DNA of 64,000 nt, from assembly GCA_044892525.1 (NCBI GenBank), contig CM097887.1, positions 7,812,001-7,876,000 of the forward strand, read 5' to 3'. The first letter of the stretch is position 1, and the number at the start of each line of letters is the position of its first letter. Position numbers and translations under genes: made by a program. The notes beneath the pieces are model-generated. The model saw only the letters and a program-made list of their open reading frames with translations, was not told where the DNA came from and ran no database searches. This DNA comes from Schmidtea polychroa (Eukaryota). This document shows positions 1,651 through 48,914 of the stretch, one piece after another.

Positions 1651-1839
1651 ACCTAGTAAACACCTAGGACACCATTGGCTTCAAATCCTAACATGAGTGA
1701 TTGAACTATTCCTACAATTAAGAAATCTATTTAGATTCGTGATTGCTACATAATGATAATTATTCTTTTCAATTAATAATAAATTTATAGGTGTTGCTCC
1801 TACTATCTTACTTCTGTAAATGATATCAAAAACGGGAAG
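1651..1839 (-). pseudogene. Fragment of a third protein-primed PolB N-terminal region
   Basis: DIIYRSKIVGATPINLLLIEKNNYHYVAITNLNRFLNC..THVRI*SQWCPRCL aligns with DIIHRSKVLNGTVINLLLLNKGNNFHYVAISNLNKLMNC..TRIRSLWCHRCL of the 33104-36916 ORF; in-frame TGA at 1681-1683. Confidence 0.85.
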
Positions 1840-2549
1840 CTTAATAAAGTAATTAAAAACTAAATAGTTAAAGGCAACAAAAATCAATAATTAATTAAGT
1901 CATAAGCAATTAATATAGTTGGAAAATTTAATTCAATAAAATATAATATTATATAGTATAATAAAAATTTCAATACAAATACTTTTGTAGTAAGAACCCT
2001 ATGGGGAGCTACTGAAATAAATAAAAAATGAATAAATAAATACAAGTATATTGTTGGGTTGATGGTCAAATAAATAATAAATAACCAGATTAATAACTTA
2101 AAATGTTTTTTCATGTTTTTAAAAATTTTTAATTCTCATTACAAAAATTTACAATAATATAATTACTGCCAAAATTTACAATATCATATTCTCTAATAAA
2201 ACCAAATCAAAATAAAATGAAAATTTACCAATCTGTCAATCCAAAAATCTTCCGAAAGGTAAAAATCTAAGTCCCGAAATTCGGTTGAAAAAATAGGTTA
2301 ATTGATTCGTGGGCTGATCGATTCTATCCTGTGTTTCTAATGAAATATTCTGAGAATGTCCTGGTTGTGAATGGCTCTAAAAATTTAAATAATCGTTGGG
2401 TTAACACTGTGTGTAAATAAAGACATCATGCTCTTACCTAAATAATCGTTGGGTTAACACTGAAATTTCTGCACACAGACGCGAGAACAATCAACCAACA
2501 AACTGCCAGTCAGAGGCAATCCCCCTCTGACTGGTCGATACATAACCAT

Positions 2550-3572
2550 CATTAAGAAAATAATAATAATAACAAAAATAAAATAAGGCCATTAAAATTC
2601 ATCATATAACAATAAAAACCATAAAAATAATAAATAATAAAAACACACTCTAACTGCGTCCTGATTGGACGGAAAATACTATATAAGGAATACATAAAAT
2701 CAGTTGATCACCACTTTAACAAAAAATATTACGGACTACCGAACAGGATCCATACAACGGAATACGACAATAACGATAGAACAGCCACTTCGATATTAAA
2801 GCTTTACTTAAAGGGACCAATTCATTTTCAACTATTTTTGAACATTCGATTCAGTTTCGGCATCCCAATATTGAATGAGAATACCCGGAACCCAAATGAC
2901 ATGGTCGCCAGGTGAATTTTCATTTATTTAGTTATTTTTGTGCTGATTTCCATTGGATTGAAGCGAATTGGGTCGATTTGTCCCTCATGACGGTGCAAGA
3001 GTAGTGGACAGCAATGCGTACTATCCTTGGGTGGGTCATGAGGTGTGAAGAAACTCTGATGAATGATAGAAATAGAGCATGATAATGACTTCGTCGAGTG
3101 CGATCGGTAGAATCTTCTCTATTAAGAAAATTAAGAAAAATCTCTACATTAAGAAAATAATAAAATAATAACAAAAATAAAATAAGGCCATTAAAATTCA
3201 TCATATAACAATAAAAACCATAAAAATAACAATAAATAATAAAAACATACCCTAGCTGCGTCCTGATTGGACGGAAAATACTATATAAGGAATACATAAA
3301 ATCAGTTGATCACCACTTTAACAAAAAATATTAGAGACTACCGAACAGGATCCATACAATAACGACAATAACGACAATAATACGACAATAACGATAGGAC
3401 AGCCACTTCGATATTAAAGCTTCATTTTCAACTATTTTTGAACATTCGATTCAGTTTCGGCATCCCAATATTGAATGAGAATACCCGGAACCCAAATGAC
3501 ATGGTCGCCAGGTGAATTTTCATTTATTTAGTTATTTTTGTGCTGATTTTCATTGGATTGAAGCGAATTGGG
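2550..3572 (+). repeat. Direct repeat pair of ~425 bp (2550-2972 and 3147-3572), each carrying a CCAAT+TATA module
   Basis: Near-identical sequence from cattaagaaaataat to gaagcgaattggg in both copies; each contains ctgattggacggaaaatactatataag. Confidence 0.9.
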
Positions 3573-5789: not shown

Positions 5790-7600
5790 CGGACCAATAG
5801 TTTTCAGCACCAGTATATCATGTAAAGTTTTATTTCTTTTATTATCGTAGTTATGCATTTTTTTATTATCATGATACTTGTAATAATATTGAATTAATCA
5901 TTAAAATCTTGTTCTCTATTCTTTTGGATATATTATTTATGAAATGATATATTTAATATGACATATGATGAAATAATTTATTTAATGATGATAATGAAAT
6001 GGTTTCTTTAACGACTAAAGGATCTATTTAGTGATATGATAAAACGAATAATGCAGATGAAGAGAACAGTGTTTGGGAATTTATTTAATGCCAGTAGGAC
6101 GTTTGTATAGATATGATGAGTGGTAGAATTACAGAGAGAGGCATCCGGAAAAATTCTATGAGATTAAATCGCTCGACCTGGCTCAAATCCGAAGCGAGAA
6201 AATATGAAGACCATTCAGGGAATTGATAGATCGAACTATTCGGATAAATTAGAAATAGATAAGGAGTATTAATGATAAGAGTGTAGGAATGATTTGATGT
6301 CGATGAGGTATTGAACTTGAATTATGATTATTGGGTAGAGTAGGGATTTGGAGAATAGTGACACAGCGAGATTTTTGGGAATCTGGATGTGTGGAACTGG
6401 AGGATCAAATAATGTAGGGTATGGTCAGTAGGAGAGTTGAACTTCACGGCCAGAGATTATGATTGAGGTACCAACAATTTCAGTAGAAGTAGCCAGATAG
6501 CTGTCATGATGTAGCGTTATAATATCATAGGGTTGTAGTGACGTAAATGAGTAAAAAACTACTATCCGAACGATCTAGATTTCAGAATTATAAATTTGAA
6601 TTTTATTATTTTACTTACTTTAAATTGTTTTTTTTATAATGAGTGGTGACATGATTAGCTAGGAGGACGTCTGGAACTGTTGATACTTGTATCGATATGG
6701 CACCGATCGTCTTGCTGGATGATTGGTCATGGGAATTGAGAAAAACTTTGGAGGGATGTAAGTGAAATTGAAGGATCGAATGGACGATCAGGGATCACGA
6801 GAACTTCTTTTTTGAACCATTTATCTTGTAAGAAGAAAAACTTCTGTAGGCCAACAAACTCATTCCCTAGTTCTCTAATTTGTACTTTTAGAGGTTTGAT
6901 CGCCAACTCGTCGATGGCCGTCATAGCATAATCGCATATCCATCTTCTTGTAAACACTCTGGAAGGTTCCGATCTTGCTCGTGATAAGAATCATTTGTAA
7001 TCGGCTTGTAAATATCCAGTAGGCATTCGTGTAAACAAATGATGACAGATGATAATGAGAAATCTCAAAACCTGCGATAGGCTTTTACCCGAGTCAACGA
7101 CGAAAAGTGTAATTATAAATTTTGAATCAACATCAGATAGCACTAGAGATAAGCGATGTCTGAAGGAAAATGGATGACAGAAATTCATATAAATATTTAG
7201 ACACCATTACCCGAAATAGCAGGAATTCTCCAACAGTGAATAAAATCCGTGAGAATCACATAAACATGTACGCGTCGATGAGAACATCCCTCACATATAG
7301 AGATGACAGGTGTTTATTCCCACACTTCTCCTAGCGAGCATTCACATTTAGAGGATTTTGACGATTTCTCGATTGTATACACTCCATTGAGTGAATAGTA
7401 GCGACAGTAGAAGACCAAAACGATATAGATTCTGACGACGTAATGAAATCTGGTAACCTACACAGATATTTAGAATTCTATCACACACCTACTTATGTCA
7501 CGTCGAAGTATTACGTTACAATTCGACTCGATGACACCGAATGCAATAATCCAAATTCTAATCACACTGTCGCTCTAATATCTGTCGATCTAGGATAAAC
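5790..7600 (-). pseudogene. Degenerate Cys-rich, possibly glycoprotein/env-like gene (family C)
   Basis: Stop- and frameshift-broken coding-like sequence with Cys clusters (KCECSLG, ICEGCSH), N-glycosylation sequons (NTS, NHS) and patchy similarity to 9975-11150 (RIPAIS/HLPAIS, SGKSL/SGKAM). Confidence 0.3.
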
Positions 7601-26800: not shown

Positions 26801-28099
26801 AAATTACGTCTATTTTACTAAGTAGAGGTATTTTTTGAGGTGGTTCACCTGCCCTTTTATAGATTTTAACAAGAAATAATTTTATTGAAGAAATTTACAA
26901 GATTTTATGAAAATAAAAATCAAAATCGGCTAAATACATTTATTAAACTTTTATCGCCACAATTTTTGTTGTAGTGTATCATTCATTAAGCCTTAATGAT
27001 TAAGGAACAATATCTCTAAAGTGAATAATTAAAAAGACTTAGTTTTATTGTCTTTATTAGTCATGTCTTTGTTAATCATACACTTAATAATCAAAATGTT
27101 TTTTATTAAAATATTTAAAAAATCTGCTTAATATCTTTATTTAATAATACACAGATTATACACGTTAAAATCCAAGAGCAAGTCTTGCACGTTCTATTCA
27201 CCATATTGGAGAAAATATATTATTTTGATCTACTTTAATTCCTTGTAAAGTTAAAGTGTTAAACCAGTTTTGATTCTCTGGGAGAATGATTTCCAGAAAA
27301 GTATAAAATCATAACGGACATTCGAAAATGCAGTTGTAATCGCTTAAATATAGCTATTTATTTTACTAAAAACATTTTTAAGGCATCAATATCCTCATTT
27401 GAGGTAGCCATTAGATGCGGATGTTTGCTTAGTTTCACTGGATTTGTCAACTTGATTTCTATTGGCAAATTTGAAAAAAAAAAGATTTTGTAATTGTGGT
27501 ATAATTGAATTGGATGCAATTAAACTCCAAAATTTATTGGATTTTCTTTTCTTGTTTTTCAGCCATCATTTTCTTGGCCATTTGCAAAGATTCATTTGTG
27601 TGTGTTGCGTCTGCCTTGTTTAAGTTACACTTGTGTTGGATTCACTTTGTTTGCTCTCAAATTTTAATGTTATTTTACTGTTTACATAAAATATTTTAAA
27701 ATAATACTGATTACAGCAGTCATTTTTTCTATTTACTAACAAAAACATTTATATAAACATTTATTGATTATCAACAACACACGAAAAATAATATTTTCGC
27801 AACTACTCTCGCAATAGTTGATTGACATGGATACCAAGCCTATCGATACATGTTTCGCACTCATAAGCACAAATTGATGGATGGTCAATTTGTTGCAAAT
27901 CTTCTTAATTAAAATTTAGATGTTGTTGGAGAATCTATTCCAAATCAATCCCGTTGCGAACATAATTCTGAACCGCAGCACATAAGTTCCGACAAGATTT
28001 TCGGACACAACTCCTTAATTTTACCGAATTATTAACGAATGAGATGTAATCTAAATTTTGAAGCTCTAACACAACAATTTTTCCACTTGAAAAAATATT

Positions 28100-28516
28100 G
28101 ACCCGTATTGGTTATATTTTAAGTATCAAGGCTGGAAATACTTGGTGTTCAAACATGCATTCAGTTTTTTGAGACAATCTATATGGATTAATACATTTTG
28201 TCAAATCAAAGTTCGACAAGCTATAAAATCAATGTTCCAGATGGTAACCTTAATAATTTACAAAGAATTTGATAAAGAATTTTACAAAAGTAAAGTGACA
28301 CAAGTTCTTAATAAAAGAAATCATTATTCTGTACATTCTCAATATAGAACCACTCATGTTGAACGATTTAATAGAACATTGAGAGATAGACTCAAACGAT
28401 TTTTTGTACATCAAGAAATAAAACATGGATTAATGTTTTACAGAAAATCAAACAGTTATAATCATTCACCACATAGAGGTTTAAATAGATTATCAATTCA
28501 TCAAAAATTATGTTGA
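28100..28516 (+). pseudogene. Polinton/Maverick-type retroviral-like integrase core remnant
   Basis: FDKEFYKSKV..YSVHS..HVERFNRTLRDRL..YNHSPHRGL is a c-integrase DDE core pattern; first catalytic region degenerate. Confidence 0.8.
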
Positions 28517-31265: not shown

Positions 31266-32074
31266 AGGACAAAAGCAAGTAAAGCCCTATTAATTGATTA
31301 ATCTTTTGCTTTATAAGACACGAAATCGAAGCACCCTAACAGATTTTTGGGAAATTTCAACATTCAATTAAAAAAACGCAATAAACATAGGCTACTATTT
31401 AATGGGTCAGTATTTTAAATTAAATTTCAATTATTTACTAAAAAAATTTATTATTATGCTGATAGTTTATTTTAAATACTGAGCATTTTTTTAATTCTTA
31501 CTGTTATAATTAAGTATAAAATACTGACCATTTAAAAATATATATACTGACCAATTATTATTAAATACTTACACTTTAATTAATCCCCTTTTTAATTGTT
31601 ATCAGTATTAGGGAAAGGCTTTGTTGATTAAGAAAAGTTGTGTTGCTAAGAAGTGTTAAAATTCGGAACAAGTAATTTGATTCAGGTTATGTAATTTAAT
31701 TTAGATTAAATATATCAAAATTAATTAGTAGGGAGTTAGTGGCCCGCGGCAGCAATAGGGGGGGGGGGGGTAAAAAATGTTGCAAACTTTTGATTGCATA
31801 ACTTTTTCCGTAGACATTTTTTGATTACATAATTGTTGCCGTAATGCCCAATGTTTTCTGGGATTTTAAATACAATTTTTTTTTTTTTTTTTTTTTTTTT
31901 TTCAATAAACAAGCCAAGGATAAATATTATTTGGGTGGGTCTCCTTGGTCCTGAGAATTTCAATAGAAAAAGGTAGTCTTCAATAAAAAAGCATGGATTT
32001 TTCACACTATAGTGAGGGGATCTTCTTGGTCATGAGAATTTCAATAGAAAAGGTGGTTTACATTAAAAAACGCA

Positions 32075-32670
32075 TAGTAAATTTTTAAAATAAAGTAAAT
32101 TATGGGTCTAAAATTTAAAAATAAAGTAAATGATGGGTCTAAAAATTTAAGTAAATCAAGGTTCAGATTTATTTTTGAAATAAAGTAAATTATGGGCTAA
32201 GATTTTTCAATTAAAGTAAATAATGGTTCTAAAAAATTAAATTACAGTAAATTATGGTCCAAATTTTTAAATTAAAGTAAATTATGGTTCTTAAAAATTA
32301 AATTAAAGTAAATTATGGTCAAAATTTTTGAATTACAGTCCAAAAATTTAAATTAAAGTAAATTATGATCCAAATTTTTAAATTAAAGTAAATAATGGTT
32401 CTAAAAAATTAAATTAAAGTAAATAATGGTCCAAATATTTTATATTACAGTAAATAATGGTTCTAAAAATTAAATTACAGTAAATAATGGTCAAAAATTT
32501 TAAAATTAAAGTAAATTATGGTTCTAAAAATTAAATTAAAGTTAATTAAGGTCCAAATTTTAAAATTAAATAATCAATGGTAAAAAAAAATTTAAATTAA
32601 AGTTAAATAAGTAAATTAAAGTAATAATTTTTAAATAAGTAAATTAAAGTAATGTAATAAGTAAATTAAA
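32075..32670. repeat. Tandem array of a ~32-bp unit (aaattaaagtaaattatggt[cc/tc]aaaa..)
   Basis: Roughly 15 degenerate copies downstream of the left polymerase. Confidence 0.9.
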
Positions 32671-32860
32671 GTAAGATTTTTAAATTTATTAACAAAAATA
32701 GAAGGTGTTTGAGAATTGAAATTTTTTAATGGAAATTTTAATGAATTATTTTTTAAGTAATTTTTAATAGAAATTTTTATGAATAATTTTCAATGGTAAT
32801 TTTTAATGGAAATTTTAATAGAATAATTTTTAAGATAATTTTTAATGAAAATTTTTATGA

Positions 32861-32916
<56 letters not shown>

Positions 32917-33103
32917 TAATATTAATAATATATCAACCAAATACTATACAACACATAAAAAATTAACTAAACACATAAAAATAACTAGACACATAACAAA
33001 ACATATAAACATTAACTAAACACATAAAAATGAACTAGACACATAACAAACATAAAAATTTACCAAATAACAAATGTAAAGATATAAAATTTATTCAATA
33101 AAA

Positions 33104-36100
33104 TTAGTCCTCATCGGACAAAATAACGTCATCGATATCGATGTCATCTTCTCCAAAATCTTCATTTAATTCTTCCTCATCTTCTCCATCATTTTCTCCA
33201 ACATTTTCTGAAACATTTTCTGCAACAATTTCTCCAACATTTTCTCCAATATTTAATTCACTTAATCTTACATGCCCATATGCAAGACTAGTATTTTGCC
33301 CCACCCAAACCCTTTTGTCATCTTTGTTAGTTAGTGCTATTTTTGTGTTTTTAATTGTAAAAATTTGATGATTTTTGCTTGTTATTTTAGTCTGAGGAAC
33401 CGAAAAAATCTGGTTAGTGTTATAACAATCCAGGTATGACTGATGTTTTATGTCACTACCTTTCAATGTTACACCTTTAGCCTTTTTTGTTTCCTCATCA
33501 CCCAACAAGCTATAACATTTAGGTCTAAGAAAAACCCACTCCTTATATTTAAGACCTTTATTCTCGTCTTTGAACTTTCCAATGACTGAATCAAGGTTCT
33601 TACTATATAAGGAATGACAACTATTGTAATTGGAAGTATCCAATAAATTATCTCGAACCATTGCAGGTAAAAGAACCTCAAGTTTGCAGTTAATGACTTC
33701 GAGGAAAAAAGAATCTGTATCACCTGCAACGATATTAATTTTACAATTAAACTCATTGCGAAATGATTCCAGATCCTTATATTGCAATTCATACATTCTA
33801 AGTTTAGATAGATCAAGTACAGATTGACCAATGTAACTCGGTCTATCTAAACATATAGAATCGGAATTCAATAGTGCTGCAATTAAATTATCTGCTATTT
33901 TAATAGATTTTTTAAAAGTCGGTTTTGACGAATATTTAACTAATTTACCGGCAGTTGTACAAAGACGAAGATTCATTCTTCTCTTTAAATTTTCAACTGT
34001 TTTGCCGTATAAACTATTATTTAGCAATTTATAATAATTTTTATCTAAGCTATTTACGCTTTTTGATCTTAATTCGGTATTTGTATCTATATATTTTTTA
34101 AAAATTGGTGATTGCTTAAATCTTACACCCCTATTTACACGTGTTACTTTAACACCAAGTTCCAAATATAATTTTAATAATCTCCAATGAATAACATAAT
34201 TAGATTTTGGAAGATGAGTTAATAATAATTTTTCAACCTTAGACCCAGCAGGTTTCATTTTTTCAGCAGCTACAGGGAAATGATCCAACTTATCATGAAG
34301 CTCAGAAGGAATTACAAGATCAACTTCAAGTGTGTATCCATAAGACAAAGATTCAAGATTTAAATTCCTACATTCATCCATTATTTTATCAAATCCATCA
34401 AGAACCCAACAAAATTCGCCACAAGGTAATGATTGACTTAAAGCCCAGCCATAAAGATTATTAATATCTATATATAGTAACTCAGTGTTCTCGTCGGTTT
34501 TTACGTAATGCTTATTCACAAAAGTAAGACCGCCTCTTATTCCACCCTCATAAAAGCTAAACATTTCGTTTTCAGTTATGAGTTCAATTGGTTCATTTAA
34601 AGACATTAATGCAGAAGACCAAGACATGCCTGGAATTCCGAAATAATTCAATGGTTCCAATCTATTGTGAGCAATGGATTTCAACCGAAACTGATGAAAG
34701 AAATCAGCCAAAAGAAAACAATCAAGTTTTAGGTAGATCATCATATAATCTAATAAAGTTACGCAATTAGTTTCTACCCAAATCTCCTGAGCTTTTTCAT
34801 ACTCAAGCTCAGTGACACCCTCCCAGATTGGTGGTAATTCATAAGTAGTTTGGAGAATATCTAAAGAAGTGGCGAAATTATAAGGGAAGATTCCTTTTTC
34901 ACTTACTATGGTGCCAGAAAAAGCAGAATTAGTAAAAGGCAAAGAATTCAAAGTTTTGACTGCTTTAGCCAAAGAATCATTGACAAATTGATACGAATCA
35001 ATGAATCTTAGGCTAATTTTACCTAAATGAGCAATCAAAGATATAAATTTTTCCGTAGTTATTGGGATGCACCCTAAATTCCAATTTTTAAATTTATTTA
35101 ATCCATATTTAAGTATATGGTGCATATCGTATCCCTTCAAGTTGTGAAATACGATAGGCAAAATTTTATTTATTTTCCTATTTACGTTACATGTGCTACA
35201 AGCTGCACCCAAGTATTTCCCCGTAAAATGATCGTGATCTCTAACAGGATCGACGATAGATTTCATACAAAGATAACAAACAGATGCACTAACAAATTGA
35301 CGTTGTTCAATTTTTGTTAATTTCATCATAGGTTTCCTACCCATTTTATAATAAAAAGGAAGAACCTTATTTAATGCTATATCCTCTATAGCACTTAAAA
35401 AACTCTCGACGCAATCTAAACCTATGAACTGCTGATAAGATTTAGATCCGTCAAAGTTATTTACAAGTAAAAGACCAGCAGATATTGGCATGTGTCGTTG
35501 GAAATGATCATTATCAGAAGGTAAAATAGCCTCAAAATCTGCATAAACTACAAAAGGAGGAGTTACTGTTTTCGACCAGTCAGTAAACTGTAATAATTTA
35601 TTTTGAGGGAAGGTGTAAAGAGTTGTTCCTAATTGATTACGTTTACATAATATTTCATGTTTTTCTAGTGCGTGTTTATTATTAAACCCATTCAAACACC
35701 GATGGCACCATAATGAACGTATGCGTGTAGGACAACTAGTGTTGATATGACAATTCATTAACTTATTTAAATTACTTATAGCAACGTAATGGAAATTGTT
35801 TCCTTTATTTAATAATAGTAAATTAATTACAGTTCCATTTAAAACTTTGGAACGATGTATAATATCTAAATGTGGGTGTTTTAATACGTAATTATCTATT
35901 AATTGTTTGTTATTGTCATAAGAAAAAACGTTAATTATTAAGCCTGGATTTTTGGCCTCGAATTTTCTAATATCTTTTAATTTCATGGGTAAGTCCAATG
36001 GATTATATATTAATTCAGATAAATTATAACTGGATGTCCTATTTCTAGCATAACTACTAACCTCATCATATTTTAAAATAGCTAAAATGCTATATAAAAA

Positions 36101-37446
36101 ACATGAATCATCGGTGTTTTTTATATTAATTAAACAATATTTATTTTTTAGATAAGTAGGTGTTTCAATGAAACTCCTACCACTTAATCTACTTAGCCTA
36201 CTTATTTTTGTTATGGTGAAATGTATTTCAGTGATATTTTTTATATTCCAACTGCTTCCTAACTCAGTAATATTAGTAATTTTCTCATTTAATTCCTTAA
36301 TGCCTTCATCAAAAAATGATGCAGTTAAAGGCTTTGCATAATTTGAGATATTATTAACCTTTATTTCCCCGTCTTTTTCAAATTCGATTGTTATTCCGAA
36401 TTGAATTTTGACGGAGCCTAATTCGTTAATAATATCTCGTAATTTTTTTATTAGTTGTTCAGGAAATATTATTTCTTTTATATTTAAGTCGCTTGTATTT
36501 AAGCTTAATATTTGATGGGTACCTCTTAGATCTTTTTGTATTATTGGAACATTTCCACCTATTTGTATTATATTTAATCCATCCCAAGAGTCAAGGGAAA
36601 TATTATCTAATCCAACCTGGGATTCAACAACCAATCCATCATGGGATTCGACAACCAATCCATCATTGGATTCCACAAAAGGCAATCCGACCTGGGATTC
36701 AAAAGAAGAAGTATCTAATTTAATTTTTTTATTTTTATTATTTTTTTCTATAGTTGAGGGTCTTTTAAAAACACTATCTTTTTTAAAATTAAACCTATCT
36801 AAATGATTTTTATGTTTATTATAAAAAACGCTATATGTTACGGGGTCACTAGTCTTACATACGGGACATATAAAATAAGTTTTATTATAATATTTTTTCG
36901 TATAATAATTCTCCATTATAGAATGGCAATTATTATCATGTTCTTTCGATGAACAATAATTTGGGTAAAGTATACCTATAAAATAAAAATTTAATAAAAA
37001 AAAATATAATTTAAATGAAATATTTTAGTAAATGTTTACGCAAAAATTTGCAAATTATTATTATTTTACAAATTTTATTTACTAAAAAATAAAAATTTAC
37101 TAAATTAAAAATATTAACATTTACTTAAATAAAAAATTATATTAAATTTCCTTTAAATTATAAAAAGTAATCAATACTTACATTGTAAATTTTCATTTCG
37201 ATTTATTGACACATTGACATAATTTTTTTCTTTATTCGTATTACCTAAATTATTAATTAATTAAATCAATAAATTAAAAATTATGTTTACTTTTTCTTTT
37301 CAAATTTCCTTTAATCTTAGATTTTAAATTGTCTTCATTAATATTATCTAAATTAATTAATAAATTAATTAATAAATAAATTAAAATTTACCAAATTTCT
37401 GAATTTTTTCTCGGACATTCATAACGTTTTCTATTAAAGAATTCAT
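33104..37446 (-). CDS. Protein-primed DNA polymerase B, left copy; join(37446-37392, 37347-37291, 37244-37182, 36975-33104), ~1348 aa
   Basis: ExoI YADFE, ExoII HNLKGYD, ExoIII Y..LD, motif A YIDINNLYG, motif B KLLNNSLYGK, motif C AGDTDS, PKCY; endoVII-like CYLC..RDHDH..CSTC; three GT-AG introns (44, 46, 206 bp) give a 4047-nt stop-free frame. The 5' exons are a manual prediction. Confidence 0.9.
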
Positions 37447-37540
37447 TTTTAAAGGTTAACTATTTGTTAAATGTGACTAATGATTGATTATTGTTTATAG
37501 ATTATTATTGTTTATAGATTATTATTGTTCATAGGAACAA

Positions 37541-38556
37541 ATTCTAACCAATCAAAATCAAGGAAGGGTAGGAAAAATTAATTTATTTTAAAACACATTT
37601 TGACGCTAAAGTTGACTTATTTAACATTTTCATAATAATTTAATAAAAATAATGTGATGAACACACAAAGTAATATCATTTTTCATCAAATTGCAAAACA
37701 GTAATAACGTTTTCATAAAATTGTAACAAAGTAATAACATATTTCAGATAAATTTTCAACAGTTGTAAAATATTTATCAAATTGTAACTAAAATAATAAA
37801 AATATTGCAACAAAGTAATAAAATAATAATGGTAATTAAGACAAATCAATACATTATTTCGAAGACGGACAACAAATTAAAAAGAATATTGTAACTAAAA
37901 TAATAAAAATATTGCAACAAAGTAATAAAATAATACAACATTTTAAACTCTAGATCAATCCATTTTATAGAAAATTAAATTTTATCTATATAATATATGA
38001 ATAAATATCCAAGGAAATTACGTTAACGTATAATAAATACAAATTTATCGTAAAAACATGTGTGTATTACACACAAAACAAGATACATAATTTCTAATCA
38101 ATCCATTTTATAGAAAATTAAATTTTATCTATATATTATATGAATAAAATCCTAAGAAAATTACGTTAACTGTATGAAAAATACAAATTTATCATAAAAA
38201 CATGTGTGTATTACACACAACATACGAGACATAATTTTTAATCAAGCTATTTTATAGAAAATTAAATTTTATCTATATAATATATGAATAAAAATCCAAG
38301 AAAATTACGTTAACCGCGCGAAAAACTACAAATTTATTGTAAAAACATGTGTGCATTACACACAAAGCATCAAACTGAAATTGTAATTGCGCCATGTTGT
38401 AGAGAATTAAATTCTGCCTATACATGGTTACACTTAAATCTCGATCAGACATGTGAAAAGAGACATAAAAGATAAAAAACAGTAGAGTAGTATGATGTGT
38501 CCCCTCCCGGCCATGTCCCCTCCAGATCACATATACCCCCTCCCCCCCCCCCCCCC
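37541..38556 (-). repeat. Left inverted arm (TIR-like), ending in ATATACCCCCT(C)15
   Basis: Reverse complement of 39304-40464 at about 90-95% identity by eye; includes ~133-bp x3 internal repeats and a CCAAT element at the gene-proximal end. Confidence 0.95.
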
Positions 38557-38574
38557 GGGAAAAAAATTTTTTTT

Positions 38575-39150
38575 TTTTTAGAACGATGCCTAATATTTTT
38601 AGAATGATTACGTCATAATTTTAGAACGATGCCTAATATTTTTAGAACTATTACGTAATTTTTTTTTAAATTAAGTGATCCAGCGGGGACCTACTTTTTT
38701 TTCATCCTAAAAATTATTGTTCCCGCCAACAGATTATATTGATCGATAGCTTATTTTAAGGCCCTGTGCGAGATCTATCTAATGAGATATAGATTTTTAT
38801 CATACGATGACTCATCACATTTTTAGAACAAAGACAATGACTCATCACATTTTTAGAATGATGTCTAATATTTTAGAATGATGCCAAATATTTTTAGAAC
38901 GATGCCTAATATTTTTAGAACGATGCCTAATATTTTTAGAACTATTACGTAATCGATGTCTAATATTTTTAGAACGATGCCAAATATTTTTAGAATGGTG
39001 CCTAATATTTTTAGAACGATTACGTCATACTTTTAGAACGATGCCTATTATTTTTAGAATGATGCCTAATATTTTTAGAACTATTACGTAATCAATGCCT
39101 AATATTTTTAGAACGATGCCTAATATTTTTAGAACTATTACGTAATTTTT
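38575..39150 (+). repeat. Minisatellite of a ~21-bp unit (ttttagaacgatgcctaatat) in the inter-arm spacer
   Basis: About 20 copies in two blocks, with ttacgtca/ttacgtaa and gatgactcatc variants; a ~110-bp unique segment is also duplicated (~38665-38780 and ~39148-39260). Confidence 0.9.
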
Positions 39151-39303
39151 TTAAATTAATTGGTCCAGCGGTGACCTACTTTTTTTCTTCCCAAAAGTAA
39201 TGTTTCCATCATCCGAATTTATTAATCAAACACTTATTTTAAAGCCCAGTGCAAAATCTATATACTGATATATAAATATTATTATTAACATTATTTTACA
39301 CAC

Positions 39304-40464
39304 GGGGGGGGGGGAGGGGGTATATGTGGCCGAGCGGGCTCCTGGCCGGGCGGGCCCACATCATACTACTCTACTGTTTTTTATCTTTTATGTCTCTTTT
39401 CACAGGTCTGATCGAGATTTAAGTGTAACCATGTATAGGCAGAATTTAATTCTCTACAACACGGCGCAATTACAATTTCAGTTTGGTGCTTTGTGTGTAA
39501 TGCACACATGTTTTTACAATAAATTTGTATTTTTTCGCGCGGTTAACGTAATTTTCTTGGATTTTTATTCATTTAATATATAGATAAAATTTAATTTTCT
39601 ATAAAATAGCTTGATTAAAAATTATGTCTCGTATGTTGTGTGTAATACACACATGTTTTTACGATAAATTTGTATTTTTCGCGCGGTTAACGTAATTTTC
39701 TTAGGATTTTATTCATATAATATATAGATAAAATTTAATTTTCTATAAAATGGATTGATTAGAAATTATGTATCTTGTTTTGTGTGTAATACACACATGT
39801 TTTATTATACGTTAACGTAATTTCCTTGTATATTTATTCATATATTATAGAGATAAAATTTAATTTTCTATAAAATGGATTGATCTAGAGTTTAAAATGT
39901 TGTATTATTTTATTACTTTGTTGCAATATTTTTATAATCTTATAACAATTTGCTTAAATATTTTACATCTGTTGAAATATTTCCGAAATATGTTATTACT
40001 TTGTTGTAATTTACTGAAAGACTTCACAATTTATTACAATATTCTTTTTTAATTTGTTGTCCGTCTTCGAAATAATGTATTGATTTGTCCCAATTAACAT
40101 CATTATTTTATTACTTTGTTGCAATATTTTTATTATTTTAGTTACAATTTGATAAATATTTTACAACTGTTGAAAATTTATCTGAAATATGTTATTACTT
40201 TGTTACAATTTTATGAAAACGTTATTACTGTTTTGCAATTTGATGAAAAAAAATGATATTACTTTGTGAGTTCAACACATTATTTTTATTAAATTATTAT
40301 GAAAATGTTAAATAAGTCAACTTTAGCGTCAAAATGTGTTTTAAAATTTAAGTTTTAAAATACTGCAATGTAATGCATTTATTTTTCCTACCCCTTCCTT
40401 GATTTTGATTGGTCAGAATATATTTATTTTTCCTACCCCTTCCTTGATTTTGATTGGTCAGAAT
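39304..40464 (+). repeat. Right inverted arm (TIR-like), starting (G)11AGGGGGTATATGTG
   Basis: Mirror of 37541-38556; the CCAAT element ttttcctaccccttccttgattttgattggtcagaat is tandemly duplicated here. Confidence 0.95.
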
Positions 40465-40490
40465 TTAATCATGTGTAATATATAAGCAGT
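40400..40490 (+). promoter_or_regulatory. Double CCAAT box + TATA box upstream of the right polymerase
   Basis: tgattgg x2, then tatataag at 40479-40486, about 50 bp upstream of the predicted start codon. Confidence 0.65.
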
Positions 40491-40536
40491 AACTTTTCAA
40501 ATGTTTGTCATTTAAACTTTTAATTTAACTTATATA

Positions 40537-41608
40537 AGTGAATAAATTTTTATTCTCTATCTAATATTAATGATTATTTTTTAGTGAACGGATGCAGTTT
40601 ATATAAATTTTGTATTGCCGAAAGTCATGAAGATGTGGAGAACTGTAAATCAGTTACATCATCATATTTCAAGATAAATGACTCTACCTTATCGGGTTAC
40701 ATATGTCCGGAATGTCTCATTATAACACCAGGTAGGTGGTTAATGTTTGTACGACAACACGGACACCATCTTAGAAGATTCGAAGAAACGAAGAGCAGGA
40801 TGATCACTAAAAGTAATACTCTTTCTACTATTAACAATTATTAATTTTTTATAGTACAATCGAAAATGAATACATCATACGATCCTAAGGAGATTAAAGA
40901 ATATGTTACAAGTTATGTTATTTAAGTTGTTTAATATTAATTATAAATATAGTTAGACAAAACTCTGGCACCACAAAACGAAAGTCAATATTTTACGGAA
41001 ATGGAGACTCTAACATACAATTGTGTCCACGTCGGGAGTCTGACTTAAACGGTTCTCGTGTTGAATTGACAAGCGATGTATCTGCAATTAATTCTCCTGA
41101 CATTGTTGTTCCAGATTGTCTCATCAAAGAAATAGAAGATCATATTCAACGAATGGGGACAGTAAAAATCCAATTTGGACTTTGTGCAGAGTTTATCAAA
41201 GAGGATGGTGAAATTAAAAAATGGTGTTTGTCGAATAAAGCAATTACAATGTCATCTTCATTTATTAATGATGGAATTGAAAAATTAAAAGAAAAGTTGG
41301 AGAAATACACTCAACAAAGTAGTGGGTGGAGAATTCATAAAATATTAGAAGTTACTATGATTTTAACTAAATTATCAGACATAATACATGTATCTGGTAA
41401 GATTATTTACATTATTATATATATATAAATCAAGAGATTACTTAGGTTCAAGTTACATTAAAACGCCAAATTACCTGAAAAACTGTCAGGCTTTAGTTAA
41501 TGTTCAAAACAATGATCAATTCTGTTTTTTATATAGCATACTAGCTGTGTTACGTTATGATGATATACGTCGGAATAGAGAAAGAACAACAAAATATAAC
41601 TTAAGTGG

Positions 41609-41671
<63 letters not shown>

Positions 41672-44564
41672 AATGTCATATATCATTGAATTTTGTTTTT
41701 AAGACTTAAAATGGAAATTTGAATGGTTTCCGATGAAGTTGGTTAACATTTGCCAATTTGAAGCAATTAATCCAAATCTAGCGATCAATGTTCTCAAATA
41801 TAATAAAGATCCAATTAAACAAAAAACTAATGATATTTTCAAGAATCCGTTCATTGACTTGGTATATAGAAGTACTTCGACGGGATCTCAGATATATCTC
41901 CTATTGATTGAAGAAGGTAATATTTCCTTTAATCATTAAAAATATTAACTAAATTTAGAATTAAATTATCATTTTTTGGCTGTAACTAATCTCGATCGAC
42001 TGCTGAATTACAGAGATAGAGTAGAAGGAGTCAGAATCCAATCACATTGGTGTCATACGTGTCTTCATGGGTTTCAAAAACGTCCTGCTTTTGAAAGACA
42101 TATAGGTCTTTGTAGGAAGAATGTGGAGCGTACGACTCTATACTCAATGCCAGAGAATAAATATATCGAATTTAAAGATTGGAGTAAAACTATAAAACAG
42201 CAGTTTGTTGTCTACGCGGACTTTGAATCGATATTACCTCTAGATGACAAACACTTCCAAAAACATGAGCCGATTGCATCTGAATTTGTGCTTCTCCATC
42301 AAGGTTGTCCGATCCGAAATGAAACATTTGTTGGGAAAAACTGTATCATTCAGTTCATACAAGCATTGGATGATATAGCTACAGACATAGTTTATCCGTG
42401 GTATAAAATTAATGGATCAAAGGAAATGATGGAACTCACTTGGGAAGAGCAGGAAGAATTCACGACTCAAACTCATTGCTACCTTTGTAAAAAGATTATC
42501 AATATACCCGTTCGAGATCATGATCATTTTACTGGTCAATATCTCGGAGCAGCGTGTCAAGATTGTAATTTGGCTAGAAGAATCAATCCGTCTTTACCTG
42601 TTGTATTTCATAATCTTCGTGGATATGACATTCATCATATATTAAAATATGCAATTGGAAAATTCCCAGATTGGAATTTAATTGTTATTCCTCAATCAAC
42701 AGAAAAGTTTCTCACACTTACAGCGACATCGAAAGGCAGAAGAATTAGATTCATTGATTCTTTACAATTTTTAAATAGCAGCTTGGCAAATTTATCAAAA
42801 AACTTGCCACGTCTTCCACTTACTTCAAAGATTTTCAATTCGCATCTAATAACTGGTAAAGGCATATTTCCTTATGATATTGCTACGTCAATGGATGTTT
42901 TACAGTCAATAACAGAATTACCATCGATTTGGGAGGGAGTTAGTCAAGAAGATTATATACATGCAAATCAAATCTGGCGACAATATAACTGTGAGACACT
43001 GCTAGATTACATGCTAGTATATCTCAAGTTGGATGTTTTTGTGTTGGCCGATGTTTTTGAAGCTTTCAGAGAAAAAACATTTGACGAAGATGGACTTGAG
43101 GCTTTATCGTTTGTTTCCATACCCGGATTAAGTTGGGCATCAGCTATTAAACAGTTACCTGAACCGGTAGAACTTATTCAAGATCCAGAGCTTTACCGTT
43201 TATTTGAAGCTGGTATTCGTGGTGGAATGACATTTATCAACAAACATCATGTTGAAGCTGATGAATCAACACAAATGTCATACCTAGATGTTAATAATTT
43301 ATATGGATGGGCGCTGTCGCAAAAACTTCCTATTGGTGAATTTAGATGGATAAATGATCATACTGAAATGAATGGTATTGTTGAAAGATGTGCAAATGGG
43401 GATGAGTTTGATGGAGATCGTGGATATGTTCTAGAGGTTGACATCGTCATTCCTGATAGTATACAAGATAAGCTAGATGATTTACCTATAGCTCCTGAGC
43501 TTTGTTATCCACCTGGTAGTAAAGTTGAAAAGCTGTTGTTAACTCATGAGCCTAAGAAAAACTATGTAGTTAATGGTAGAGTTTTGACAGAGTGGTTGAG
43601 TTACGGCGCAAAAGTCACAAAAGTTAATCGTGCTGTAGAATTCAAGCAAGTAGCTATTTTCAAACGCTATATTGATTACAATACTCAAATGAGAGCAGCT
43701 AGTACAGATTCATTTCAGCGAGATTATTATAAGTTAAAGAACAACAGTTTATATGGTAAAACCGTGGAAAACCTTAAGAAACGTATAAATTTGAGATTAT
43801 GCAGCAAAAGCAAAAGATTGATAACTTATTGTAGTAATCCTATGTTTCGTCGTAGCATCAAGATTGCGGATGATCTCATTGCTGTTATACTTGATAAGGA
43901 AATGGTGTGTTTAGATAGACCAATGTATATTGGACAAACCGTACTTGATTTATCTAAACTTCGCATGTACCAGTTTCAATATAAAGAACTACAGAGTTAT
44001 AGAGAAGAATTCAATTGTCAAATTAATATCGTAGCCGGTGACACAGATTCCTTCTTTTTAGAGTGTAAAAATGTTGATTTACGCTTACAACTGTATCCAA
44101 AAATGATTGCCGATGGGCTCCTAGATACTTCAAATTATCCGGTGACTGATCCATTGTTCTCAGATAAAATTTGTTCGGTAATCGGGAAATTCAAGGATGA
44201 GAATAAAGGAAATCAATATAAAGAATGGGTGTTTCTTCGACCCAAGTGCTACTCACTCCAAGGAGATAAAAACACTCTAAAAGCCAAAGGAATAAGTCTT
44301 ACAAATTCTAATATCACCCATGAAGCCTATAAAAAAGTGTATACTGATGGTGGAACAGTGAGCATCCAACAAAAGAGAATAGGAAGTGTTAATCATCAGT
44401 TGTATACTTTCATTACTGAAAAACGAGCTCTCCAATGTTTGGATGAAAAAAGGTATTGGTTCAATTCTAATGAAAGCTATGCCTACGGTCACTATAAGAT
44501 TCGTCAAATGCATATCGCAACTGCTCCGTCTACAAATGAATGCAAATCGAAACAAGAACTTTAA
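40537..44564 (+). CDS. Protein-primed DNA polymerase B, right copy; join(40537, 40585-40812, 40855-40911, 40953-41396, 41446-41607, 41704-41916, 41959-44564), ~1236 aa
   Basis: YADFE, HNLRGYD, YLDVNNLYG, KLKNNSLYGK, AGDTDS and PKCY all intact; six GT-AG introns (47, 42, 41, 49, 96, 42 bp) give a 3711-nt frame colinear with the left copy (e.g. restores LLLIEEELNYHFLAVTNL). Confidence 0.9.
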
Positions 44565-46020
44565 CAATTAAATTTATGTGAATAATAAAATATATATTGT
44601 GAATTATTTGACTTCGTTAATTAAAATATGTTTTATCATTTAATAATTCATTTGTCCAATTAATTTAGATAATTAGTTTTAAGTAAGAATTATTATTTAT
44701 CATGAAAAACTTTGCTTTGTTTTGAAAAATTAATGCCCATTTTATTTAAATTAACACAGCTTTATTTTATGATAATTACCAATTAAAATTTTATTCAAAT
44801 TGAATAATTACTAATTAAAATTTTATTCAAATTGAAATATTATTGTTATAATTTACGCTCTTGTTAGAATATAATGTAAAATTAAAAAATAAATAAATAA
44901 TAATTAAATAACGTTGGCAATTAAAATAAAATATTAATAAACAAATTAATTAATTAAATGTAATAAATTAAAAATTAACTAAAATAAGTAATTAAAGTAT
45001 AACATCATAAAATAATTAACTAATAAAATTAAAGAGAAAAAAAAAATAGAAGTAATTAAATAAAATTAAAAATAATAATAATAATAATAATAATTAAAAA
45101 GCGTAAGTAATTAAAATAAAATATTAATAAACTAATAAATTAATTAAATGTAATAAATTAAAAATTAACTAAAGTAAGTAATTAAAATATAACATCATAA
45201 AATAATTAATTAATAAAATTAAAAAGAAGTAATTAAATAAAATGTTAATTTAAAAAATAAATGATTCGATTGGTCTATATTTGATCTTGATATTCCATGA
45301 CCTTGAAAGTGAGTTGGAGTCCTTACTATTCACTACTTTAATTGTTTAATAAATAATTTTAAATCGGTAATTCAAAACCTAATTATGTCAACAAAAGAGA
45401 TAATATTTTTAGTTAAAGGAATTATTTATTAAATAAACATGACTTTTATATAATTACTTACAATGTAGTTGAACCTATTGACTTAGAGGTGGGTATGATA
45501 ATTTAAACTTAAAACTTATTTTACTTTGAATGTATTAGTTACCAAATAAACATACTGAAAATGTTATTATTCACTTAGATAATGTAAAATTTAATAGGAA
45601 ATCTAAAACCATCATAGAATATATTGTAATATAGGATACTCTAGATTTTCATTTATATTTCAATGTTGGAGTCAAATGGGATTTACTGAGTGTGTTCTGA
45701 TTAGCGTCTGTACCCTTTTTTTCTGGATGTTTGATTGATTTGATGCGTGTGTTTATTGTTGACTGGATTATTCGCGCCTGTGTGCGCGCATGTATTTTAT
45801 TTTGGACAATAACATTTGTAGCATTTTTTAACTAATCAATTTTCTGGATTCTAGTGTTGGAATTATATTTATTGGTTATTCAATTCAATTAATCGAAATC
45901 TTTCTGGAATTTTTTGGAATTTTGTTCATATTTGTGATTTTTCGAATTTTGGCTCGATGACCACAGTATATAAATTGTTAGCGTTTCCAGAGTCGGAAAA
46001 ATTTTAAATAAACGCAGTTT

Positions 46021-46377: not shown

Positions 46378-48914
46378 GTTAATGGTTGATTTTATTTGTT
46401 TAATATTTACAAATTTATTTTAACAATTTTATTAAATAAGAGTTATTTTAGTTTGTTGTTTTAAATTGTTAATTAAATGAGAATCATGTGAGCTATTGAT
46501 ATAAAATAATATTTTCTCTTAACATTTTTAACCAGGAAATTAAATGATTTCAATTGTTTAATAGAATAGTTGTGCTGCAATTCAATGATTTATGGAATTC
46601 ATAATTATCTTATTACAAAATTATATTATAAAAATGTTTATAGTAAAATGATTAAAACATTTAAAAGTATATAAAAATATGCATAATTATTAAAATCATA
46701 AAATTACAAAAACAAATTTATATAGAGTACGAAAACGATAAATAATATTTTATTCTTGATGTATAATTATTTCAATGACAAATTTTCCTTCAATTATTTA
46801 GAAAACAATTATTAATGAAAGGATAGAAAATTAAAAAACTAAAATAACTTAAGATGTGGTATTTTAAAATTAATTTCTGAAAAATGAAATAAACTTGTGT
46901 TTAAATTAACTTTAAACATAATAATTCCATATATTTTTAAATTAAAATAAAAACATGAATCAATTAACCACTTAAAGTACATGCCCGTGACATATACGGG
47001 TGCATCATACTGGAAATTTTGTACGTGCTGGTGACATAGACAAGCGAACATTATATTTACTTACGTGATTTTACATGATAGTTCAAGACGTGGGTGAGTT
47101 CTAATATTTGTATTGACACCTGTACTAAATACTTTTTCTATTACAAAAATTCGATCATTTTTTGACCAAAAATTCAAATTAAATGTGTACATTAAGTGGT
47201 TAATTAATTTTGATTTAAAATATTAATTATATTTTAGACTATATATATTTGACTGTATACATATAATATCAAATTATTAACTGGTATGCAATATAACGTA
47301 TGCAATATATTGAAATACATCTTTGTGGTAATTGATTTTGATTTAAGGCAAAATCTTGAGACAAAACAAATGTAGAGAATGAACATATCAAGTCGAATCC
47401 TAGTGTAATTCGACAGTTAAAGTTTTTTTAATCAAAATATCCGAGATTTCTCTCAATACTTTGCATATATGTTACAGCATAATTATTTTTTTCAAAGGTT
47501 TATGTATGTTTCACGTTAGTCACTATTTTTGGTTAAAGTTAATAATGTAATATACATATGTTTAAAGGCAGAGGTTGATTTAATTATATTTATTTGACAT
47601 TTATATTATAAAGTAGTTGCGAATTGGTGAATAGTCGTGTTTATTATTCAGATTATAGTTTAAATTCTCTATAATAAATAATTACTATAGAGAATTGAAC
47701 ACAAATTACAAATTTAAATAGAAAATCAAACGAATTATAGAAACAGAGACAAAAAGGCGGAATCAAATAACACAATCAAAGAAGATACATATTAAATAAT
47801 ACCTATTAATAAAGAATTGTCGAAATTTATACTGAATATCCAAATACAAAATAGAAATAACAATTCTTTTTGAGTCAAGGATTCCCTTGAATTTTATAAA
47901 GGTCTTTGATTTATTGTTAAATAAACGTTTTGAAAAGTTTAATATTTTAATTATTTTAGTTGTTATATTCTAAAATAACCTACATACAAACATCCAAACT
48001 GTCCCGAGACATTTCTTTTTAAAGAAGACTCGGATGGGCTCTAACAACTCTCTCAAACAATATCACAAATACAATATAACAATAACAACAATAATTTGAT
48101 TAATATTACAATATTACAATACTATCAACATAAATAATTATATTTCGTTATTTTATATGGGATTTAATAAACAAGCTTTAACAATATAATTTAAATATAT
48201 TGTTAATCATTGAATAATCAAAGACTTTTATTATACGGAAAATCACCCTACGCCTCATCTTAATTTATATAAAGGCTTGGTTTCATTGAAATTTTAAGTG
48301 TGGGGTTGTTTTATTTAACACTTTCCTTGGTTTTTCGCTTCGATTTTTATTTTTACCAAGAATTTTATAATTTCATGTTACGTAATTTGTAGCATTTTAA
48401 ATTCTATGTCAGCCGTCCATGTCAAAAATTCTCTCTTACAGTAGATAAATGGACTGGTGTCAACAACAAACGATATGCAAACACCAATGATCACATGTCG
48501 GACAGAACAGTCCATCATCTAGGGCTCACTCGTATCAAAGGATTGATGACTGCTGAATTATGCAAAGAAATGGTTGTTCAAAGACCATCTGACTTTGGTC
48601 CCAGTCTGGGATGTAGAGGCCAATTACGTCTTTGCGGTGTGTTAATTTTCGTTTTGTCTGATTAGATTTGATTTGAGAAAGCATGAGATAAGGTCTAATA
48701 GTAGTTGGAGATGTTGATAGGAGGTAATGTCTAATAATCATATTGAAAGCATCCCTACCTTTCTATACTTTATCCGTACACCTCCAAATTAATAAATTCA
48801 AAGTAATTGTTAAATATAGCAACTTTAGTTAAAGATCATAACATTCAAAGTAAATCATAAATATATGAGTTAAAATGAGTTTTCTATTAATTCCATAATT
48901 CCATATTTATAGAA

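Follow-up and report, generated by a model that had tools for sequence, protein, structure and literature searches.

Probable host-type introns in the protein-primed polymerase genes of a hybrid Maverick element from Schmidtea polychroa

In adenoviruses, one tiny first coding exon is common to pTP and the polymerase. In Polintons, the protein-primed family B polymerase (pPolB) is laid out as TP-vOTU-EXO-PALM, with a cleavage predicted between the terminal protein (TP) and the vOTU; the words 'intron' and 'splic' do not occur in the accessible text of this description (Krupovic et al., bioRxiv 10.1101/2024.03.18.585575). Maverick genes are commonly annotated as single open reading frames (ORFs), so polymerase N-termini, which hold the terminal protein and protease, are readily cut short or dismissed as pseudogenes. 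In the full-text literature searched, which lay outside subscription papers, Repbase and supplements, we found no description of introns in animal Maverick polymerases, nor of palindromic elements with two polymerase genes. Here we analyse a 13.6-kb Maverick/Polinton derivative (31727..45337, ends AGTAG...CTACT) in a 64,000-nt window of the Schmidtea polychroa genome (GCA_044892525.1, contig CM097887.1, positions 7,812,001 to 7,876,000), which carries two polymerase genes, pol-R on the forward strand and pol-L on the reverse strand. Pol-R is a protein-primed family B polymerase (PF03175, E=4e-32), and the two genes are 54% identical over 859 amino acids. Judging from the sequence, the nine GT-AG segments that interrupt them are very likely real and mostly inherited introns. 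Our favoured explanation, to which we give a probability of roughly 0.66, is that they are host-type spliceosomal introns, mostly inherited, which are removed constitutively to yield one full-length protein-primed polymerase per gene.

The six introns of pol-R are R1 (40538..40584, 47 nt, predicted to split the start codon), R2 (40813..40854, 42 nt), R3 (40912..40952, 41 nt), R4 (41397..41445, 49 nt), R5 (41608..41703, 96 nt, with a TA microsatellite) and R6 (41917..41958, 42 nt). They delimit exon 2 (40585..40812, 228 nt), which encodes a Cys/His module, a 57-nt linker exon (exon 3, 40855..40911, between R2 and R3), exon 4 (40953..41396, 444 nt), which holds a short linker and the entire little-finger-like terminal-protein domain, exon 5 (41446..41607, 162 nt), with the OTU start and its predicted catalytic Cys, exon 6 (41704..41916, 213 nt), with the OTU middle, and the last exon (41959..44564), with the OTU end, zinc finger, exonuclease and polymerase. 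The pol-L gene is predicted to begin with a first coding exon of 18 codons plus one base from the ATG (37392..37446), followed by the predicted intron L1 (37348..37391, 44 nt), a predicted exon 2 with a Lys/Arg-rich end (37291..37347, 57 nt), the predicted intron L2 (37245..37290, 46 nt), which was placed by its signals and by the same layout in other families, and a predicted exon 3 (37182..37244, 63 nt). The conserved leader intron L3 (36976..37181, 206 nt), which in the prediction interrupts the module's first Cys codon, then precedes the main exon (33104..36975), which contains the Cys/His module, linker, terminal protein, OTU, zinc finger, exonuclease and polymerase.

The original prediction had described nine GT-AG introns, all in phase 1 and separated by exons of 3n length, and this description proved accurate in every length and phase. 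All of the segments are 5–17% GC, and all seven internal exons (228, 57, 444, 162 and 213 nt in pol-R; 57 and 63 nt in pol-L) are stop-free solely when entered in phase 1. The introns fit the host type, with lengths of 41–60 nt, GTAA, GTAT or GTTA donors and a TAG acceptor. It also holds that the region interrupted in pol-R is intronless in pol-L, where the frame 37024-33107 runs across it unbroken, and that the catalytic halves of both genes are single open frames. The introns are restricted to the N-terminal half, which is predicted from structural models to comprise the terminal protein and the OTU protease. The two window genes share no intron position, as had been claimed, but R1 and L3 lie just 2–3 codons apart at the same N-terminal boundary, and R1 may be the same leader junction, shifted.

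As phase-based annotation risks circularity, we used our own spliced protein-to-DNA aligner, which charges the three phases equally, with six uninterrupted homologous proteins. R4, R5 and R6 were placed at their exact coordinates and in phase 1 with all six homologues, and the R2 donor and R3 acceptor with five, the sixth alignment having begun downstream. R1, the 57-nt R exon, L1 and L2 were not recovered by protein homology in these alignments; near R1, five homologues start 3–5 residues ahead of the same cysteine. In the repeat-rich linker of L-clade genes the aligner also called 'introns', but these lie within open frames and were discarded as alignment artefacts.

The strongest evidence that the segments are real introns, as read from sequence comparison, is the conservation of their positions. 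Of seven metagenome loci, two (L101 and L102, 55–56% identity) reach the intron region, and both have 43–45-nt phase-1 introns of different sequence exactly at R4 and R6, and none at R5. In L102, a further 44-nt phase-1 intron lies about six codons from R3, ahead of the terminal-protein exon; this locus has a CCAAT/TATA promoter like that of pol-R and a 31-codon first exon, without the Cys/His module. No relatives turned up in the viral contig and genome contig collections searched. On the pol-L side, a rule-based comparison put the L3 acceptor at the identical base, in phase 1, for 19 of the 21 distinct L-clade contexts (module identity 42–100%); inspection by eye showed an AG there in the remaining two. 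The autonomous Mavericks of the same genome (H2, H3 and G2), whose polymerase is 95% identical to pol-L, have the same leader acceptor, and in autonomous copies the leader intron spans 0.4–1.4 kb. The leaders upstream of this acceptor are unrelated among L-clade families and often Lys/Arg-rich; as the upstream donors end in T, the split codon at the junction is predicted to encode cysteine. Among 18 loci tested for a three-exon leader, nine had a detectable leader donor; two more short phase-1 introns lie upstream in four of these nine, representing three families and including autonomous Mavericks, and one further locus has a single additional short phase-1 leader intron. The unit of L1 plus its exon is similar to that of L2 plus its exon (z=4.0).

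The original proposal, in which the two genes gained or lost introns independently once a duplication had produced them, finds no support in these data. In the protein tree (a quick search with SH-aLRT support only), pol-R and pol-L fall in separate clades, each with its own metagenome relatives, and the genes were joined by recombination. The positions of L1–L3, R4, R6 and probably R3 are common to distant relatives, R4 and R6 recurring at 55–56% identity instead of being lineage-specific, and only R2 and R5 are private so far.

The copies within the genome (781 Mb in 1012 contigs) combine conserved exon lengths with variable introns. From 31 R sites, less four incomplete and one duplicate, we obtained 26 distinct copies, in which 153 of 154 intron ends are GT-AG and internal exon length is kept in 125 of 130 cases, while the introns vary by non-multiples of three. 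Relative to the window copy there are 267 synonymous and 242 non-synonymous substitutions over 251 and 997 sites, counts that are descriptive only because the copies share ancestry. Shared variants per exon indicate constraint in exons 4–6 and weak constraint in exon 2, and the 57-nt exon has no indel across 44 copies. Introns of 3n length at first seemed to be in excess, but this was mostly put down to ascertainment, since the copies had been chosen with intron-free protein queries. We therefore picked 20 further R copies solely by last-exon DNA, of which four gave no reading. In this de-biased set 64 of the 68 introns read are GT-AG, with modal lengths of 42 (R2), 41 (R3), 48 (R4), 50 (R5) and 43 nt (R6). 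R3, R5 and R6 are mostly not 3n and so cannot be read through. R4, alone among the introns, is 3n and stop-free in 8 of 14 de-biased copies; of 23 short host introns of 3n length, none is stop-free.

R5 ranges from 15 to 140 nt among copies. In four copies (L108, L109 and L110) it is a 15-nt, in-frame, stop-free remnant, and L110 has one copy with a 39-nt R5 intron and one with the remnant. A precise loss of R5 in these four copies was rejected because the remnant persists. Microsatellites have grown in both R4 and R5. Pairwise comparison of 14 Maverick introns revealed no clear mutual similarity above the AT-rich background, the best R-R pair lying outside the top 14, and left intron-to-intron copying among the R introns unsupported, although the genome as a whole was not searched with intron sequence.

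The predicted protein folds place these introns in the domain architecture. AlphaFold was run on the natural N-terminal frame of pol-L (pLDDT 80.9). In this model, the Cys/His module (residues 6-61) is followed by a disordered linker, then by a little-finger-like domain (141-258) and finally by an OTU fold (272-404). Structure matches gave middling Z values, 7.6–8.0 for the little finger (rmsd 2.5–6.4) and up to 7.3 for the OTU, and Foldseek returned no match at E<=0.001. On the basis of the model, both polymerases are taken to carry TP and OTU folds with predicted catalytic Cys and His residues. The Cys/His module had no named match, nothing exceeding 0.8 in the Atlas search, and a single-sequence model of pol-R exon 4 was of low confidence (pLDDT 55). 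Projected onto the pol-L model, pol-R exon 2 covers residues 6-71, exon 4 covers 143-264, exon 5 covers 267-319, exon 6 covers 328-375, and the last exon begins at 394. This mapping puts R2 and R3 in the linker, R4 at the TP/OTU boundary, and R5 and R6 in OTU loops, R6 falling in a beta-turn directly before the predicted catalytic His.

We infer a three-part account of the coordinates, phases, conserved positions, domain layout and copy variation, which are themselves shown by the analysis. An old phase-1 leader intron ahead of the N-terminal Cys/His module would have set the frame, and any leader or linker exon added, duplicated or lost beside it would therefore have had to be 1-1 symmetric; this part would cover L1–L3 and R1–R3. 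R4, R5, R6 and an intron in the Maverick integrase gene would have arisen separately, at G-ended sites in loops or at domain boundaries, where phase 1 is presumably favoured as the commonest G-ended site in the AT-rich coding DNA here, and as the sole phase in which the GTAA donor and TAG acceptor of a 3n insert would escape an in-frame stop. Third, two palindromic non-autonomous families would have recombined to form the window element, whose integration probably depended on an integrase acting in trans.

The alternative that survives best grants that the introns are real, but regards the all-phase-1 pattern as a small-number coincidence, strengthened by frame-driven inference during annotation and requiring no mechanism; we consider this unlikely. 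As a host control we aligned nine myosin genes, five of them well, and obtained 25 distinct intron positions from this single gene family, with 14, 7 and 4 in phases 0, 1 and 2. One host myosin exon was most similar to the myosins of flatworms. The comparison of nine of nine with 7 of 25 (Fisher p=0.0002) is overstated as a test, because the nine positions are not independent and six are tied to one leader frame. For the four positions outside the leader frame (R4, R5, R6 and integrase), p is 0.006 at the host share. All four follow a G, and a G before the donor lies in phase 1 at 322 of 643 sites; if sites need such a G, p rises to 0.06, or to 0.06–0.125 for the three to four positions that remain after the frame-tied ones are removed, a point in favour of coincidence. 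The integrase intron (L070 ~2950-3000; also examined in L044 and L001) is in phase 1 in two of three Maverick families, with 42 nt in one and 75–80 nt of ATT repeats in the other, and is absent in the third. One family has an 11-bp direct repeat across the intron ends, and one copy of the second family has a stop-free 75-nt ATT run. The adenain-like protease gene is also consistent with coincidence: directly after its start codon it has a 37–40-nt phase-2 intron by eye in 14 of 14 rows, L070 (~7290-7340) among them, and a single leader intron is predicted to be in phase 0. Because of the conserved protease intron, phase 1 is not an element-wide rule. Against coincidence, five of six independent Maverick positions (leader, R4, R5, R6, integrase and protease) are in phase 1 versus 7 of 25 in the host (Fisher p=0.02), and the unrelated leader exons of several families all finish in phase 1. 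Within a 3n insert, read-through would meet a stop at a TAG acceptor in phase 0 and at a GTAA donor in phase 2. A read-through filter as the cause of the bias is a lead only, because most R5 and R6 introns in the de-biased copies are of non-3n length. The data point to a moderate phase bias, likely explained by the frame-fixing leader plus site bias.

A second alternative is that selection maintains phase 1 because alternative skipping of the exons yields polymerases that may or may not contain the module, the terminal protein or the OTU protease; in its extreme form, by analogy, the leader would be joined to downstream exons to produce a polymerase free of terminal protein, as in adenovirus-like splicing. 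The exon layout makes this attractive: exon 2 is the Cys/His module, exon 4 is the terminal-protein domain, and R4 stands at the terminal-protein/OTU boundary, while L102 lacks the module exon and some homologues seem, by eye, to repeat the module. Adenovirus E2B, as far as the accessible part of the source describes it, yields pTP and polymerase via alternative splicing (PMC9499273). Yet no exon-skipping joint was present in the contigs of four runs that we guessed to be RNA, the parts left uncovered being uninformative. Moreover, R5 and R6 interrupt the OTU fold, and the model suggests that skipping exon 5 or 6 would remove parts of it. L-clade Mavericks without R2–R6 still reach high copy numbers, and the integrase intron is in phase 1 in a single-intron gene, where skipping has no meaning. 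We regard selection for skipping as improbable. To a broader version, in which the front half of the polymerase is a phase-1 exon cassette of leader, Cys/His, TP and OTU, swappable in evolution and skippable in RNA, we give the same small chance. If it were true, splicing instead of gene fission would provide a polymerase without terminal protein, and the element would be a living intermediate between the polinton fusion proteins and the adenovirus split.

That the segments are random AT-rich insertions in dead copies, never spliced, might seem to be favoured by the unspliced contigs in the presumed RNA runs and by microsatellite growth in R4 and R5, but is very improbable given the identical positions in 55%-identical relatives, the conserved GT-AG ends and constant exon lengths, the ~835 first-look candidates for exon 4 of pol-R, with 100% identity in all 40 that were scored, and the full open frames in most of 91 scored last exons.

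Several observations weigh against our explanation of old, constitutively removed introns whose phase was set by a leader frame and site bias. The contigs from this organism contained no spliced junction, and contigs of X1, X2 and X4 retain intron sequence at R2, R3, R4 or R6. In the tree, both pol-R and L101/L102 have nearest relatives that were called as open proteins, so the common R4 and R6 positions would need repeated loss, parallel gain, or database records that are transcripts. Exon 3 of pol-R shows no clear purifying selection (shared synonymous/non-synonymous variants 1/4). Among the nine donor-bearing leader loci, one family has a leader intron predicted to be in phase 0, and in three loci no short intron was seen upstream. 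L1 and L2 alone match weakly (z=2.8, the level of unrelated AT-rich introns), and their exons alone give z=1.1. As for read-through, a filter with host-type signals yields just ~50% phase 1, and only 1 of 14 R5 and 3 of 16 R6 introns in the de-biased copies are 3n. More ambiguous is one X4 contig, from another organism, that departs from the reference at the exact R6 donor and, with five different letters, resumes in frame. Its depth is 39.5, versus 5.6 for the form that keeps the intron, and either spliced RNA or a relative without the intron may account for it.

The window element is flanked on both sides by a 6-bp target duplication (TTAATT), and its two ends are alike only in the terminal AGTAG/CTACT. 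No integrase, packaging ATPase, capsid or protease gene is present within 31727-45337, which makes it a non-autonomous derivative. The autonomous Mavericks, on the other hand, have an ATPase, an integrase, a protease and a capsid-sized gene, the capsid being named by size and gene order (no Pfam hit). DNA searches of the genome returned 851 first-look candidates for the L leader and 835 for R exon 4. Most of 91 scored pol-R matches, and many of 91 pol-L matches, occur as outward-facing pairs 8–12 kb apart. The four R and six L pairs that we fetched are 13–15-kb palindromes with 6–7-kb arms that are 97–99.8% alike, with an exact 6-bp target duplication in three of the four R elements and four of the six L elements, and one with a mismatch in a further L element. 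Two high-copy palindromic families are thus seen, each with two near-identical outward polymerase genes and no integrase. No autonomous R-type Maverick appeared among the 21 R copies listed, which had the same promoter or a rearranged end, although no search was aimed at it. Both arms of one palindromic element are often equal in open-frame length, which suggests that they were copied from a single template.

The window copy is a recombinant of an L-family arm and an R-family arm through their common centre, and not a duplication, because each lineage otherwise forms its own palindromic two-polymerase elements with this centre. The centre (37541..40460) has inverted arms of about 1 kb (92–98%), 144-bp and 21-bp repeats, CCAAT boxes at 37548, 40407 and 40452, and the inner AGTAGT termini of a separate mini-element. 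The palindrome centre proper (38486-39370) has AGTAGTATGATGTG termini at its start and finish. These ends recur in a separate 5.3-kb element that stands free at L030 1282-6564, with its own 6-bp duplication and no long ORF.

Other observations concern the wider Maverick complement. The autonomous Mavericks encode a TATA-binding-protein-like gene (PF00352, E=5e-16; L070 713-1225, reverse strand, and homologues) and a small gene with an adenovirus protein X match. The autonomous Maverick at L069-L072 is embedded in a tandem array of a 1.3-kb repeat with a 280–300-codon open frame. Decayed Maverick pieces in the window resemble a polymerase (1651-2079, reverse strand), a TBP-like gene plus integrase (28040-28492) and a capsid-like gene (47323-47578). 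Another 20-kb palindrome (L041-L043) has 6.7-kb arms holding retrotransposon-type integrase frames, and fold-back duplication therefore extends beyond Maverick genes.

That intron positions are kept across families and metagenome relatives suggests that these elements have long resided in host nuclei and depend on the host's spliceosome. There are hundreds of dated copies, whose introns extend from 140 nt down to a 15-nt in-frame remnant, and the birth and decay of introns in a virus-like element thereby become countable. The intron that falls right at the TP/OTU boundary, where cleavage is predicted, could, if the model is right, let splicing separate the terminal protein from the polymerase, a question to be answered at the RNA level.

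Compared with the autonomous Mavericks H2, H3 and G2, the window element has the same AGTAG termini, 6-bp duplication and leader acceptor and a 95%-identical pol-L, but differs in its long inverted arms, each bearing an outward polymerase gene. Like the Polinton pPolB, as far as the accessible text of Krupovic et al. describes it, the polymerases have a little-finger-like TP followed by an OTU fold with Cys and His, an exonuclease and a polymerase; unlike it, the gene here contains conserved, probably spliceosomal introns, among them one between TP and OTU, and its N-terminus bears an additional Cys/His module. Spliceosomal introns within Polinton-like elements, as probably here, are also found in the introner-bearing maverick-polinton-like viruses of dinoflagellates (PMC11957031), whose introns, in the part of that report available to us, are multi-copy transposons, whereas those here are old and position-conserved. 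Adenovirus E2B, in the accessible part of its description (PMC9499273), similarly makes a protein-primed polymerase from spliced RNA with upstream leader exons, splicing being predicted in our case; there, TP and polymerase are separate ORFs, whereas here a single predicted polypeptide is interrupted by short, host-type introns.

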